A stretch of 14,968 bases of DNA from Labilithrix sp. (GTDB lineage Bacteria > Myxococcota_A > Polyangia > Polyangiales > Polyangiaceae), in the NCBI GenBank assembly GCA_019637235.1, contig JAHBVZ010000182.1, positions 1 through 14,968 of the forward strand, read 5' to 3'. The position numbers and the translations under genes are program-made. Position 1 is the first letter of the stretch, and each line of letters begins with the position of its first letter. This document shows positions 4,415 to 12,793 of this stretch, in pieces. The notes below the pieces were generated by a model. That model was not told where the DNA came from, did not search any database, and saw only the letters and a list, made by a program, of their open reading frames with translations.

Positions 4415-4957
4415 GTGAACGCGCTACTCGTTCGCGCCGTCACGGGCGCGCTGGAGGCTCCTCGAAGCGAGGCTCCCGCGCGCATGACGTTCGACGCTCT
4501 CTTTCACGACTACGTCGACTTCGTGTGGCGGAGCTTGCGCCATTTCGGAGTCGCCGAGGCGGATCTCGAGGATCAGACCCAGGAGGTCTTCCTCGTCGCC
4601 CACCGCCACTTCGCGAACGTGAGCGTCGAGCATCCTCGGGCGTGGCTCTACGCGATCGCGCGGCGGGCGGCGTCCGGGTACCGGCGACGAAGCTACAGGC
4701 GGCACGAGCGCGCCGTCGAGAACGTCCCGGAGAGCAGCCACAGCCGCGATCCGGCCGCCGGCGTCGAGCTCGATCGGCTCGCGTCCGTCCTCGACACGCT
4801 CGACGAGGACAAGCGCACCGTCTTCCTCCTCCACGACGTGGAGGAGATGCCCATGCGCGAGGTCGCCGAGGCCGTCGGCTGTCCGCTCTCCACCGCGTAC
4901 GCGCGCCTCCACGCCGCGCGCCGCGAGCTCGCGAAGGCGATCCAAGAGGCTCCATGA
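4415..4957 (+). CDS. ECF (group IV, sigma-70 family) RNA polymerase sigma factor
   Basis: The N-terminal 'ALLVRAVTGALEA' matches the usual 'ELVxRAxxGDxxA' start of ECF sigmas. Region 2 is 'FDALFHDYVDFVWRSLRHFGV...DLEDQTQEVFLVAHRHF'. Region 4 helix-turn-helix is 'RTVFLLHDVEEMPMREVAEAVGCPLSTAYARLHAARRELAKAI'. Start is GTG at 4415, with an alternative ATG at 4484. Stop TGA at 4955-4957 overlaps the next ATG, giving ATGA. Confidence 0.85.
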   Translation: MNALLVRAVTGALEAPRSEAPARMTFDALFHDYVDFVWRSLRHFGVAEADLEDQTQEVFLVAHRHFANVSVEHPRAWLYAIARRAASGYRRRSYRRHERAVENVPESSHSRDPAAGVELDRLASVLDTLDEDKRTVFLLHDVEEMPMREVAEAVGCPLSTAYARLHAARRELAKAIQEAP

Positions 4958-5800
4958 AGAACGATCCGACCGACCCTCCGAACGCGCCTCACGACGACGC
5001 CGGTGCGCTCGACGAGCTCGTGCGCGCGACGCGAAGCCGTGGGCCGAGCCCGGAGGCGTTGCGGCGCATGTCGAAGCAGCTGATCGCCGCCGGCGCGCTC
5101 CAGGCGCCGTCGCCTTCCGAGGCCCCTGCTGCCGGCGCGCGCCAGGCGAGCCGGGTCGCGGGGAACGTCGGCTCCTTCAAGGCGGGCGCGGTCGTGCTCG
5201 CCGTCACCGCCGGCGCGCTCTTCGCGTGGCGCGCGACGACCGTCTCGACCGGCGCGCCCGTCATCGAGCCGCGAGGGCCGTCGGCCGCGGAGCTCGCCGT
5301 CCCCACGACCGCGTTGCGCGAGGCGACCGAGCCGCGCTCCGCGCTCCCCGAGACGCCTTCGACCGAGGCCGCCGTCGCCACGGTCTCGATCGACGCCCTG
5401 CCGTCGGCGCGGCTCCGCGCGCGGCGTCGTCCGCGGACGCGCCGGCGCGCAACGCGTCGCCAGCGCATCAGGCGAGAAGCGCCTGCGGCGCCGGGCGCTG
5501 ATCGTGCGGCAGGCGCAAGACGCGCTCGCCTCGAACCCGGAGCGCGCGCTGGCGCTCGCGGACGAGCACGCGCGCCTCTTCCCGAGCGGCGAGCTCATGC
5601 AGGAGCGCGAGGTGGTCGCCGCCTCGGCGCTCGCGAAGCTCGGTCGCCGGGACGAGGCCCTCGTCCGAGCCCGCGCCCTCGTCCGTCGGTTCCCGCGCAC
5701 GCCGTACGTCGCCCACCTGGAGAAGGCCCTCGGCCAGCCCCTCTCCGCCGCGGCACCGCCGGGCGAGGCTCCGAGCTCCAGGTCCCCGTCGCAGCCATGA
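4954..5800 (+). CDS. Putative membrane-anchored anti-sigma factor cognate to the ECF sigma. Its reading frame appears interrupted: the N-terminal part is in the frame of 4954, the C-terminal helical domain is in the frame of 5504, and the switch falls within about 5400-5503. Either a frameshift or sequencing error, or a pseudogene.
   Basis: ATG at 4954 overlaps the sigma stop (ATGA). The N-terminal part 'MKNDPTDPP...' carries one TM helix, 'GAVVLAVTAGALFAW', and runs on to '...ATVSIDALPSA'. Past about 5410 this frame turns into Arg/Pro/Gly garbage, yet it stays open until 7089. Frame +1 (ORF 5504..5800) has about 95% GC3 and a sensible helical sequence, 'ALALADEHARLFPSGELMQEREVVAASALAKLGRRDEALVRARALVRRFPRTPYVAHLEKAL'. 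It ends with TGA at 5798-5800, overlapping the next ATG at 5797. Confidence 0.5.
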
Positions 5801-10958: not shown

Positions 10959-10972
10959 GAGGTGTGTGCTTC

Positions 10973-12793
10973 ATGAGCTCTTCCAAGACAGCGTCGCGCG
11001 GGTTCCTCTGCGCGCTCGGGATCGCCTTCGGCGTGTCCGCCATGGGCGCTTGCTCGGGCGCCGATCGCCGCTTCGCCACGAACGACGATCAGTTCGAAGG
11101 GGACGCCGGGCCGCTGCCGGACGAGTCCGAGAGCTGCGGGCGTCACTGCTCGCGCGACCTCAAGCAGGTCCTCGAGGGCTGCGAGGGCGCGGAGACGGTC
11201 GTCCAGCAGTGCAACCCCGACCAGGGTTGCGGCGGGGAGGCGTGCGTCGACGCCTGCCTCGCGGCCCAGGCGCAGCGTGGATCCGCCGGCTGCGAGTTCT
11301 TGACCTTGCCGCCGGAGGACGCGACGGGCGTCAACGGCTCGTGCTTCGCCGCGCTGATCGCGAACACGTGGGACCGCGCCGTCGAGCTCACGGCCGAGTA
11401 CGACGGCGCGCCGCTCGACATCTCCGGGTCGACCTACATCGTCGACCGCAAGGGGGCGGCGACCTCCGAGTCCTACACGCTGCTCGAGGGGCCGCTCCCG
11501 GCAGGGCAGGTCGCCGTGGTCATGCTCTCGGATCAGTCCCCCGTGCACGATCCCGTGGGCGGCCAGATCGTCCACTGCCCGCCCAGCACGAAGGCCGCGC
11601 TCGACTTCGATCCCATCCGCCACGGGACGGTGCTCACCAAGTCGTTCCGCATCGCGGCCGACGCCCCCGTCGCGGCGTACGCGAGCTACCCGTACGGCGG
11701 CGAGATCGGCAAGTACCCGACCGCGACGCTCCTCTTCCCGGTGTCCGCCTGGGAGAAGGAGTACATCGCCGTCAGCCCGTTCGACTTCCCCTTCGATTTC
11801 TGGGTGCAGGTCCCGAACCACCGCTGGCTGCAGATCGTCGCGGCGGAGGACGCGACCGACGTGACGATCACGCCGAACGCGGACATCGGCGCCTCGCCCG
11901 AGACCGCCCCCGCGTACGCGGGGCAGCCGCAGACCTACCGCCTGGCGCGCGGGCAGGTCCTCCAGATCATGCAGCCGCGCGTGAACCTCACCGGCTCGCC
12001 GATCTCGGCCAGCAAGCCGATCGCGCTCTTCGGCGGCTCTTCGGCGACGTTCCTCGCGGCGACGGCCGCCGACGTCCTCGGCCAGCAGATCCCCGCGGTG
12101 GCGCAGTGGGGCTCGCGCTACGCCGTCGTCCCGTTCCGCTCGCGCATCCAGACCTTCGACAGCGACTTCCGCGAGAACGTGCCCTACACGCTCCTGGGCG
12201 CGGTCGACGGCACCGTGCTCGAGTACGCGCCGTCGCGGCCGAACGGCGCGCCGGAGACGCTCTCCGCCGGTGAGTCGGTCCACTTCTTCACCGACCAGGT
12301 CTTCGTCGTGAAGTCCCAGGACAAGGAGCACCCGATCTACGCGGCGGTCTACATGACTGGCTCGGGGTACGGGAACGGGACGGGGCAGCTGACGACGGGG
12401 GATCCGGACTTCGTGAACATCCCGCCGGCCGATCAGTTCGTCGATCGTTGCGTGTTCTTCACGGACTACACGTACCCCGACACGTCGCTCACCGTCGTGC
12501 GCAAGAAGGTGCACGGCCAGTTCAAGCCCGTCACGCTCGACTGCACGGGCGACGTCACCTCGTTCTTGCCGCTCGACGGGCAGGACGGCGAGTTCGAGTA
12601 CGCGTGGGTGAAGCTGACCGAGGGCTACGTCGAGCGTGCGGTCGGCGAAAAGAAGTGCGGGTACGGCCGGCAGGAAGCGTCCAGCGACGGACCGTTCGCG
12701 ATCACGGTCTGGGGGACGGGCCTGGCTTCGAGCTACGGCTACGTCGCCGGGACCGGGCTCCGGCCCATCAACAGCTACGCGCCGATCAAGTGA
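10973..12793 (+). CDS. Secreted lipoprotein (606 aa) with a domain resembling the N-terminal IgGFc-binding (Fcgbp-N) domain, plus an N-terminal Cys-containing region
   Basis: ATG at 10973, 14 nt after the previous stop. Signal peptide 'FLCALGIAFGVSAMGAC'. 'YRLARGQVLQIMQPRVNLTGSPISASKPIALFGGSSATFL...LGQQIPAVAQWGSRYAVVPF' matches, from memory, the Fcgbp-N pattern 'DLTGS.V.S.KPVAVFSGH.C..VP...CDHLVEQL.P...WG..Y.V'. The 716-aa ORF-track version begins upstream inside the RCC1 gene; that extension is rejected. Stop TGA at 12791-12793. Confidence 0.7.
   Translation: MSSSKTASRGFLCALGIAFGVSAMGACSGADRRFATNDDQFEGDAGPLPDESESCGRHCSRDLKQVLEGCEGAETVVQQCNPDQGCGGEACVDACLAAQAQRGSAGCEFLTLPPEDATGVNGSCFAALIANTWDRAVELTAEYDGAPLDISGSTYIVDRKGAATSESYTLLEGPLPAGQVAVVMLSDQSPVHDPVGGQIVHCPPSTKAALDFDPIRHGTVLTKSFRIAADAPVAAYASYPYGGEIGKYPTATLLFPVSAWEKEYIAVSPFDFPFDFWVQVPNHRWLQIVAAEDATDVTITPNADIGASPETAPAYAGQPQTYRLARGQVLQIMQPRVNLTGSPISASKPIALFGGSSATFLAATAADVLGQQIPAVAQWGSRYAVVPFRSRIQTFDSDFRENVPYTLLGAVDGTVLEYAPSRPNGAPETLSAGESVHFFTDQVFVVKSQDKEHPIYAAVYMTGSGYGNGTGQLTTGDPDFVNIPPADQFVDRCVFFTDYTYPDTSLTVVRKKVHGQFKPVTLDCTGDVTSFLPLDGQDGEFEYAWVKLTEGYVERAVGEKKCGYGRQEASSDGPFAITVWGTGLASSYGYVAGTGLRPINSYAPIK

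Follow-up and report, generated by a model that had tools for sequence, protein, structure and literature searches.

Pairs of extracytoplasmic function (ECF) sigma and anti-sigma factors are among the main signaling devices of bacteria. Large myxobacterial genomes hold hundreds of such pairs, for most of which, to our knowledge, signal and output are not known. Among the described systems, those closest to the locus reported here are FecI/FecR/FecA signaling and the polysaccharide utilization loci (PULs) of Bacteroidetes. The locus occupies positions 4415-12793 of a 14,968-nucleotide (nt) stretch of DNA from Labilithrix sp. (the whole of contig JAHBVZ010000182.1 of the metagenome-assembled genome (MAG) GCA_019637235.1; the whole stretch is called the window below), and consists of genes for an ECF sigma factor, a putative anti-sigma factor and five predicted lipoproteins. 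The window holds one member of an amplified cassette family with 10 to at least 30 diverged copies per genome of Labilithrix-type (Polyangia) soil myxobacteria, a fact that was not part of the original prediction, which had been made from this stretch of DNA alone. Each copy retains its own sigma/anti-sigma pair.

The cassette resembles FecI/FecR/FecA signaling in that genes for an ECF sigma factor and a predicted single-pass anti-sigma factor, the latter with a periplasmic domain, lie beside those for envelope proteins, and in that several parallel systems occur per genome. In the orthologous group to which this cassette belongs, the sigma factor also has as its neighbor g0b (see below), a putative outer-membrane protein whose N-domain would be periplasmic. 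In contrast to the Fec type, the cargo is composed of five lipoproteins without a transporter, and g0b is missing from most cassettes; no protein of the window matched TonB_dep_Rec, Plug, STN or FecR. With the PULs the family shares the presence of dozens of diverged cassettes per genome, the private sigma/anti-sigma pair, the fixed set of exported lipoproteins and, as is proposed here, the logic of one cassette per ligand. Unlike the PULs, the cassette has no glycoside hydrolases or other enzymes, belongs to another phylum and is far stricter in gene content and order. SusC and SusD domains were absent from the window and from the called genes of four further loci (L006-L009).

Because the window has a G+C content of 72 per cent, long open reading frames (ORFs) are open in every frame. 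Real genes were picked by a frame plot of the G+C content at third codon positions (GC3), and all were found on the plus strand. The frame plot supported plus-strand coding across the whole chain, and together with Pfam matches and synteny it bears out the proposal that seven genes are chained on one strand. The cassette and the element preceding it comprise the following features:

4355..4386, plus strand: AT-rich promoter-like element (CTTTGCGAAATCGAC ... GCTTAGAAAT), from a footprint in four orthologs
4415..4957, plus strand: ECF (group 4) sigma factor, 180 amino acids (aa) from GTG 4415, from Pfam, NCBIfam and orthologs
4954..5800, plus strand: putative anti-sigma factor gene, disrupted here, from position, topology and ATGA overlap with the sigma stop
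5836..7089, plus strand: p3, Cys-rich predicted lipoprotein of 417 aa, Stig1 / MXAN_6577-like, from Pfam and start comparison
7086..8342, plus strand: p4, predicted lipoprotein, 7-bladed beta-propeller, start overlapping the p3 stop (ATGA), from AlphaFold2 and PDB matches
8339..9559, plus strand: p5, second, distinct propeller lipoprotein (predicted), 26 per cent identical to p4
9570..10958, plus strand: p6, predicted RCC1-repeat propeller lipoprotein, Shine-Dalgarno (SD) sequence GAGGA over the p5 stop, 10-nt gap, from Pfam
10973..12793, plus strand: p7, predicted lipoprotein consisting nearly entirely of an IgGFc_binding (FCGBP N-terminal-like, PF17517) all-beta domain, 14-nt gap, from Pfam

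Conservation of this arrangement was followed at increasing distances. When reference genomes were scanned with p7, three other Labilithrix-like MAGs proved to contain the entire block, and fragments of a sister strain were recovered as well. The order g0b-sigma-anti-sigma-p3-p4-p5-p6-p7-d1, in which d1 is a lipoprotein gene 3' of p7, was syntenic in L002, L003, L004 and L010 with 67-83 per cent amino acid identity. Both L004 and L002 carry, in addition, a diverged second cassette in tail-to-tail orientation to the first. Beyond these orthologs, p7 has a very large set of relatives of approximately 600 aa and approximately 50 per cent identity, at least nine of which are encoded in the 12.2-Mb genome of Labilithrix luteola; this species carries at least 10 copies of the cassette. 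Independent gene calls with precomputed Pfam matches at three L. luteola loci reproduced the gene order each time: the ECF sigma factor comes first, then an unannotated product of about 250-280 aa, the Stig1-like protein, a pair of unannotated products of approximately 420 aa, the RCC1 protein and finally the IgGFc_binding protein. One of these loci contained two complete convergent copies and part of a third.

A metagenome scan with the p7 alignment yielded 76 loci, and the window proteins together with two L. luteola paralog sets were placed on all 85 loci by tblastn. Upstream sequence of at least 7 kb was available for 50 p7-like genes; in 47 of these cases p3-p4-(p5)-p6 preceded the gene in unchanged order and orientation, with a sigma gene as well in 45. 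The main module patterns were SA3456 (20), BSA3456 (8), S3456 (6) and SA346 (5). Tandem arrays were found in L022 and L030, and if convergent arrays are counted as well, also in L006 and L004. In assembly ERZ778025, which has contigs in common with 'Myxococcales bacterium 68-20', contigs with a uniform coverage of 13.8-14.7x contained at least 30 distinct p7-like, 32 sigma, 30 p3-like and 28 RCC1-like genes. The p4-like gene always came before the p5-like gene, and each was nearest its positional counterpart; as paralog similarity tracks gene position, the unit must have been duplicated whole. The arrangement is far beyond chance. The span 4415-12793, proposed from the window alone, is exactly the recurring core of sigma factor, anti-sigma factor and five exported proteins, whose order and orientation are kept in the orthologs and in dozens of paralogs. 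The genes g0b and d1 were considered as core members and rejected because they are missing from most paralogous cassettes.

A shorter arrangement was seen at 2241-6391 of L067 (and also in L068), where genes for an ECF sigma factor, an unannotated protein of 261 aa and an IgGFc_binding protein directly adjoin one another. Genes of the Cys-rich, propeller and RCC1 types are lacking there, and a radical SAM/B12 protein is encoded beside the group. This single case hints that the link between the sigma/anti-sigma pair and p7 may be the older core.

The sigma factor itself is a small protein, either 180 aa or, if translation starts at ATG 4484 as in the gene call of the sister MAG (L009), 157 aa long, with Sigma70_r2 (34.7 bits) and Sigma70_r4_2 (49.3 bits) as its sole Pfam domains. 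It scored 70.6 bits with NCBIfam TIGR02937 (cutoff 42.9), it resembles the solved ECF factors SigH, CnrH and SigE, and its orthologs are 77-83 per cent identical. All NCBIfam equivalog and subfamily models remained far under their cutoffs (e.g. PRK12518, 72.5 against 208), which places the protein outside the defined ECF subgroups. In L. luteola some cassettes have split (61 aa + 161 aa; L006 1350-1969, minus strand) or truncated (91 aa; L007 3644-3919, plus strand) sigma calls. Frame disruptions in the cassette regulators may be recurrent, or these may be common sequencing errors.

The five cargo proteins carry different extracytoplasmic modules. The modules named in the original prediction (NCGxCG Cys repeats, two WG..DVWAVG propellers, RCC1 and an Fcgbp-N-like domain) were all recovered by Pfam matches and blade counts. 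In p3, which has NxCGxC repeats, Pfam Stig1 scored 39.5 bits, above its cutoff. The NxCGxCG..C repeats liken p3 to the MXAN_6577-like and plant STIG1 proteins, but with NF041328 (MXAN_6577-like) it scored 89.3 bits, under the curated NCBIfam cutoff of 100. For p4 and p5 there was no significant Pfam or NCBIfam family; seven WG..DVWAVG blades are recognizable in p4 and five in p5. The AlphaFold2 model of p4 is a 7-bladed propeller (pLDDT 82.8), for which the best Foldseek matches in the PDB were to the lipoprotein Ycf48 (E 1.6e-11, TMt 0.68-0.72). Like Ycf48/HCF136, a photosystem II assembly factor, p4 would be a lipid-anchored 7-bladed propeller, but its matches to PF14870 (E 0.01, 15.5 bits, cutoff 27) and PRK13684 (20 bits, cutoff 326) place it outside the sequence family and the host is not photosynthetic, so the resemblance is one of fold only. 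A weak match to Tectonin, a lectin propeller, was also noted (E 0.018). At E <= 1e-5, more than 4216 sequences belong to the p4 family. We consider the 'PilY1' label attached to some L. luteola relatives of p4 a weak, propeller-based and misleading name.

In p6 the RCC1 propeller was recognized by WD40_RLD (163.8 bits, cutoff 150), RCC1_2 (110.7) and RCC1 (78.3). PF17517 matched p7 with 301.6 bits (E 7.6e-90) over profile positions 1-297 of 297. In this p7 is like the N-terminal domain of animal FCGBP, whereas it differs from the animal protein in being a predicted bacterial lipoprotein without VWD or mucin modules; our searches found neither a solved structure nor a tested bacterial function for PF17517. 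An exhaustive search collected 263 cluster representatives with an E-value limit of 1e-30; when the limit was relaxed to 1e-3, the number was 2332.

Each of the five cargo proteins has a charged n-region followed by a hydrophobic h-region, with a Cys within residues 24-33. The lipobox Cys is kept in all orthologs, it is invariant in 33 of 33 p7 relatives, and Cys33 of p4 is at least 90 per cent conserved. The lipobox-like LFAGC/SS of p3 is conserved, and VMAC of p6 is VIAC or VLAC in orthologs. The view that all cargo proteins are exported and that most have a lipobox-like Cys is supported by the sequences, the pattern of an export signal and the Cys being present in all five; a strict lipobox was found in none (see below).

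The overlapping junctions had been an essential part of the original prediction. All strings are where it placed them (ATGA at 4954-4957, 5797-5800 and 7086-7089, and TGATG at 8340-8344), and the gaps, given as 10-14 nt, are 10 nt (9560-9569) and 14 nt (10959-10972) long. The SD sequences of p6 and p7 overlap the preceding stop codons, a feature that is conserved in orthologs along with the p5/p6 junction sequence. The start of p5 is either GTG 8339, in a GTGA overlap kept in all orthologs, or ATG 8342 (TGATG). The assignment of ATGA 5797 as the start of p3 is probably wrong, as ATG 5797 has no counterpart in L002 and L004. The conserved start is ATG 5836 (MHRHLAGRR...), whose Met is common to all four orthologs and is preceded by a conserved AAAGG, and the p3 call in the sister contig L009 (417 aa) starts at the equivalent ATG. 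With this start the gap between the anti-sigma gene and p3 is 35 nt in the window.

The junctions were also surveyed across the non-redundant modules of the family. In this survey the start nearest the stop was taken, which creates a bias to short distances, and the anti-sigma/p3 junction was used as an internal control for this bias. A 4-nt overlap was available between sigma and anti-sigma genes in 31 of 43 modules (ATGA 4954-4957 is kept in all orthologs), between p3 and p4 in 51 of 58, and between p4 and p5 in 38 of 44, with a 1-nt overlap in 5 more. The corresponding figures were 23 of 45 for p5/p6 and 16 of 58 for p6/p7, where the other modules mostly had gaps of 2-20 nt, and only 12 of 42 for anti-sigma/p3, with gaps mostly of 13-70 nt. 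The sigma/anti-sigma, p3/p4 and p4/p5 overlaps are conserved well above the anti-sigma/p3 control. These numbers do not support the idea that the sigma/anti-sigma pair is coupled by overlap to the cargo, the anti-sigma/p3 junction being gapped in most copies and, with a gap of probably 35 nt, here as well.

The second gene is a putative anti-sigma gene on the grounds of its position, its topology and the ATGA overlap conserved in 31 of 43 modules. A single hydrophobic segment (residues 72-90, mean Kyte-Doolittle value 1.71) predicts a single-pass protein with a cytoplasmic N-domain and an extracytoplasmic C-domain, the latter with a weak TPR_14 match (E 0.077). In L002, L003, L004 and L009 the orthologs are single intact ORFs of 280-295 aa. 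In the window the gene had been taken as an intact ORF, which proved incorrect: the reading passes from frame 1 (4954-5407, cytoplasmic N-domain and transmembrane helix) through frame 3 (approximately 5408-5464) to frame 2 (approximately 5467-5800, periplasmic TPR-like domain), and TGA 5798-5800, used as the stop in the original prediction, belongs to frame 2. The GC3 coding signal shifts around 5400-5500. Compared with the sister contig L009, which is 96.7 per cent identical to the window at the nucleotide level, the window is short of 1 nt at 5408 (GTCGG-CGCGG) and differs further by small indels at 5465-5497, so that the gene has 847 nt in place of the intact 846 nt, a net shift of +1. Every other coding indel cluster between the two sequences keeps the frame, and the anti-sigma cluster alone breaks it, which means that this cluster is either a genuine mutation or a local misassembly of a GC-rich linker.

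No stop interrupts frame 1 between 4954 and 7089; it passes through an Arg-rich segment that is out of frame and then coincides with the frame of p3, giving a theoretical fusion ORF of 711 aa. If the frameshift is real, it would yield the anti-sigma N-domain and transmembrane helix followed by nonsense and p3; the fusion ORF probably results incidentally from the high G+C content. Programmed frameshifting was also considered for this gene and rejected, since all orthologs are single-frame.

The net +1 shift is located in the linker between the transmembrane helix and the periplasmic domain; it either stems from faulty MAG assembly or leaves this copy without normal signal control. In the latter case this copy would be a decaying or deregulated paralog, in which a truncated anti-sigma factor fused out of frame, or no anti-sigma factor at all, would lead to constitutive or lost regulation amid redundant copies. 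We regard this as a serious possibility, if at somewhat less than even chances. That the cluster is the sole frame-breaking one in a comparison with so close a sister contig speaks for it, as do the locus-tag spacing from KF894_27860 (g0b) to KF894_27885 (p4), which suggests one extra annotated feature in between, and the split or shortened sigma genes of the L. luteola paralogs. On the other hand, the sequence is a MAG contig, in which strain mixtures and assembly errors are likely and the indels fall in a GC-rich, low-complexity linker, and the remaining genes of this copy are full length and 93-100 per cent identical to those of the sister contigs. In MAG JAHBWA01 (ACE_MYX5), two contigs (L001 and L005) cover the same region (6427-14968 of the window) with 95.9 and 99.4 per cent identity to the window. 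These duplicates indicate co-assembled strain variants, which increases the chance that the frameshift is a consensus artifact.

The 60-nt spacer between g0b and the sigma gene contains conserved blocks. Across the family a bipartite element, tTTTtGTGATcAa-N(about 17-20)-GCCTTTAG/CATCCAT, lies 60-170 nt 5' of the sigma gene, and seeded refinement of a position weight matrix (PWM) found related elements in roughly 30 of 55 non-redundant modules. It is plausible that the element at 4355-4386, the version present in the window, is the cassette promoter. A search for an ECF-type promoter, suggested along with the original prediction, thus returned a conserved AT-rich bipartite element 5' of the sigma gene and no motif of the GGAAC/CGTC type. 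A candidate GGAAC-N16-CGTC site (TGTGAACGC...CGTC, at approximately 4415-4445), picked out by eye, was rejected because its -10 half lacks conservation and the sequence might be protein-coding. A second conserved block, ACCATCATTCCATC, precedes d1; apart from two positions it is unchanged across five p7-d1 spacers, whose flanks diverge, and it could possibly be a separate promoter or operator for d1. Attempts to relate it to the element upstream of the sigma gene gave no consistent result. A scan of 2800-14968 for consensus sigma-70 promoters and intrinsic terminators detected neither, whether inside the cluster or around it.

The form of the element raises the question of whether the sigma factor controls the cassette at all. 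The genes might be merely co-located and transcribed from a housekeeping-type promoter (TTGnnA ... TAnnnn-like), with the targets of the sigma factor elsewhere, e.g. at d1 or at unlinked genes. The shape TTGCGA / TAGAAA is indeed nearer the sigma-70 hexamers than typical ECF motifs, and the invariant block 5' of d1 would fit a separate target. We nevertheless regard this explanation as improbable, because most ECF sigma factors autoregulate their own operon, strict linkage through dozens of duplications argues for functional dependence, and the scan for consensus sigma-70 promoters found no site.

Taken together, the reading that we favor, with a confidence slightly above even, is that the seven genes form operon-like cassettes which serve as parallel, separately regulated envelope sensing or binding modules. 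The cassette would be transcribed as one unit from the AT-rich element just 5' of the sigma gene, and the overlapping junctions would ensure coupled, roughly stoichiometric synthesis, which in turn would suggest that the five lipoproteins probably assemble into a single envelope complex. This complex would bind an extracytoplasmic ligand and communicate with the periplasmic domain of the anti-sigma factor; the sigma factor would thereby be released and would raise the expression of its own cassette, and each paralog would be a separately regulated sensing or binding channel. If the cargo binds the ligand in partnership with the periplasmic domain of the anti-sigma factor, this would explain the private sigma/anti-sigma pair in every duplicate. 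From established ECF biology and the strict linkage we infer a single transcript, autoregulation by the cassette's own sigma factor and assembly of the five lipoproteins into a complex, and the cargo may be located on the cell surface, as originally predicted, or in the periplasm. A more specific version, in which the genomes would encode 10 to more than 30 envelope receptor modules, the five-lipoprotein complex being the ligand-binding front end of a private ECF switch that signals independently of a transporter and might discriminate prey, polymers or kin, is tentative and rather unlikely as it stands.

Several observations weigh against the favored reading. Neither the anti-sigma fragments of the window nor the intact L009 ortholog matched any Pfam or NCBIfam family, and no homology to ASD, zf-HC2, RskA or FecR was found; moreover, the anti-sigma gene is broken in this copy. 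None of the five cargo proteins of the window has a strict lipobox ([LVI][ASTVI][GAS]C), all of them being of relaxed type (FAGC, FANC, GAAC, VMAC and MGAC); strict lipoboxes are present in several orthologs. Given the gap between the anti-sigma gene and p3, translation of the cargo, or even its transcription, could begin independently. The AT-rich element is unlike both the GGAAC-N16-CGTC ECF promoter and TTGACA/TATAAT, and it was missed by unbiased discovery, in which bipartite k-mer enrichment returned GC-rich, coding-like pairs and a Gibbs sampler returned codon periodicity. Since the element was recovered by the seeded PWM only, its statistical support is weak.

Some of the same evidence would fit a simpler scheme in which the sigma/anti-sigma pair senses alone, e.g. 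through the periplasmic TPR-like domain or regulated proteolysis, and the lipoproteins are regulon output (adhesins, lectin-like binders of prey or matrix, or structural proteins of the envelope) without feedback. A sensing pair with its regulon output is the commonest ECF operon arrangement, and propellers as well as RCC1 and Cys-rich repeats typically act as scaffolds for binding; the weak Tectonin match of p4 and the anti-sigma/p3 junction, gapped instead of overlapping, point in the same direction. This scheme leaves unexplained why a private sigma/anti-sigma pair is strictly linked to all five cargo genes in every duplicate, and we consider it possible but doubtful.

The remaining features of the window flank the cassette on both sides:

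154-2928, plus strand: vault-protein-like gene, 924 aa, from GC3 and Pfam MVP_shoulder and Vault_3
2983-3055, plus strand: tRNA-Glu(CTC), between the vault-protein-like gene and g0b
3281..4354, plus strand: g0b, accessory gene 5' of the sigma gene, 357 aa with a TTG start, from conservation of this start and the identical NCBI protein KF894_27860 (357 aa)
12875..12888, plus strand: invariant non-coding block ACCATCATTCCATC, approximately 35 nt 5' of d1, from an alignment of five orthologous p7-d1 spacers
12924-14138, plus strand: d1, predicted lipoprotein with seven Cys-rich repeats, from GC3 and conservation 3' of p7 in its own orthologous group
14335-14542, plus strand: small predicted membrane protein (MSTLSAMSRT...KWWKHRAENGIKF)
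14553-14968, plus strand: partial ORF that runs off the contig end

The product of g0b has a cleavable Sec-type signal peptide (ARA/A), a conserved N-domain with a W.AP..CP motif and a Pro-rich linker, and its C-terminal region, which ends in GIGYEFP, looks like a small outer-membrane beta-barrel as judged from the sequence. The gene is syntenic in L002-L004, L009 and L010; among 61 modules only 10 have a W.AP..CP ORF of this type 5' of the sigma gene, and no Pfam, NCBIfam or PDB match was found for the protein. Exact-sequence look-ups turned up no encoding contig for either g0b or p6. On the other side, d1 encodes seven repeats, each approximately 47 aa long and containing E[ST]D[VIL]DCGG.C..C, preceded by an export signal with a charged n-region, a hydrophobic core and a Cys within residues 24-33; Pfam and NCBIfam gave no match. 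It directly follows p7 only in L001-L005 and L010, the L. luteola paralogs carrying other genes at this place.

The 924-aa protein (MVP_shoulder, E 1.9e-13, and Vault_3) is a myxobacterial homolog of the eukaryotic major vault protein. Its gene is kept in the sister contig L009 and is not a neighbor of the cassette in L002-L004. The tRNA gene marks a transcription-unit boundary 5' of g0b and has no counterpart at the matching place in L002-L004. The two ORFs at the right end are conserved in the sister contig L005 only.

The full-text literature searched (IgGFc-binding proteins and myxobacteria; ECF, RCC1 and lipoprotein; Labilithrix and ECF; PF17517) contained no description of this cassette, and such a gene context is not mentioned in the main text of the ECF reclassification paper. 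ECF operons as such are a known type; what is new is a sigma/anti-sigma operon with a fixed lipoprotein cargo and unusual amplification. The comparison also leads to corrections of annotation, which concern the frameshifted anti-sigma gene, the start codon of p3 and the 'PilY1' label on propeller genes.

The cassette family accounts for a block of myxobacterial sigma factors, at least 30 in one genome with roughly 250 kb of DNA, and links these factors to one fixed set of five exported proteins, three of them without an assigned family or function. Labilithrix luteola, which is cultivable and has at least 10 copies, offers an experimental handle. If the lipoproteins are a sensory front end, the cassettes would represent a new architecture for signaling across the envelope; if they are outputs, they would represent a new and highly diversified repertoire of surface proteins in a predatory soil bacterium.

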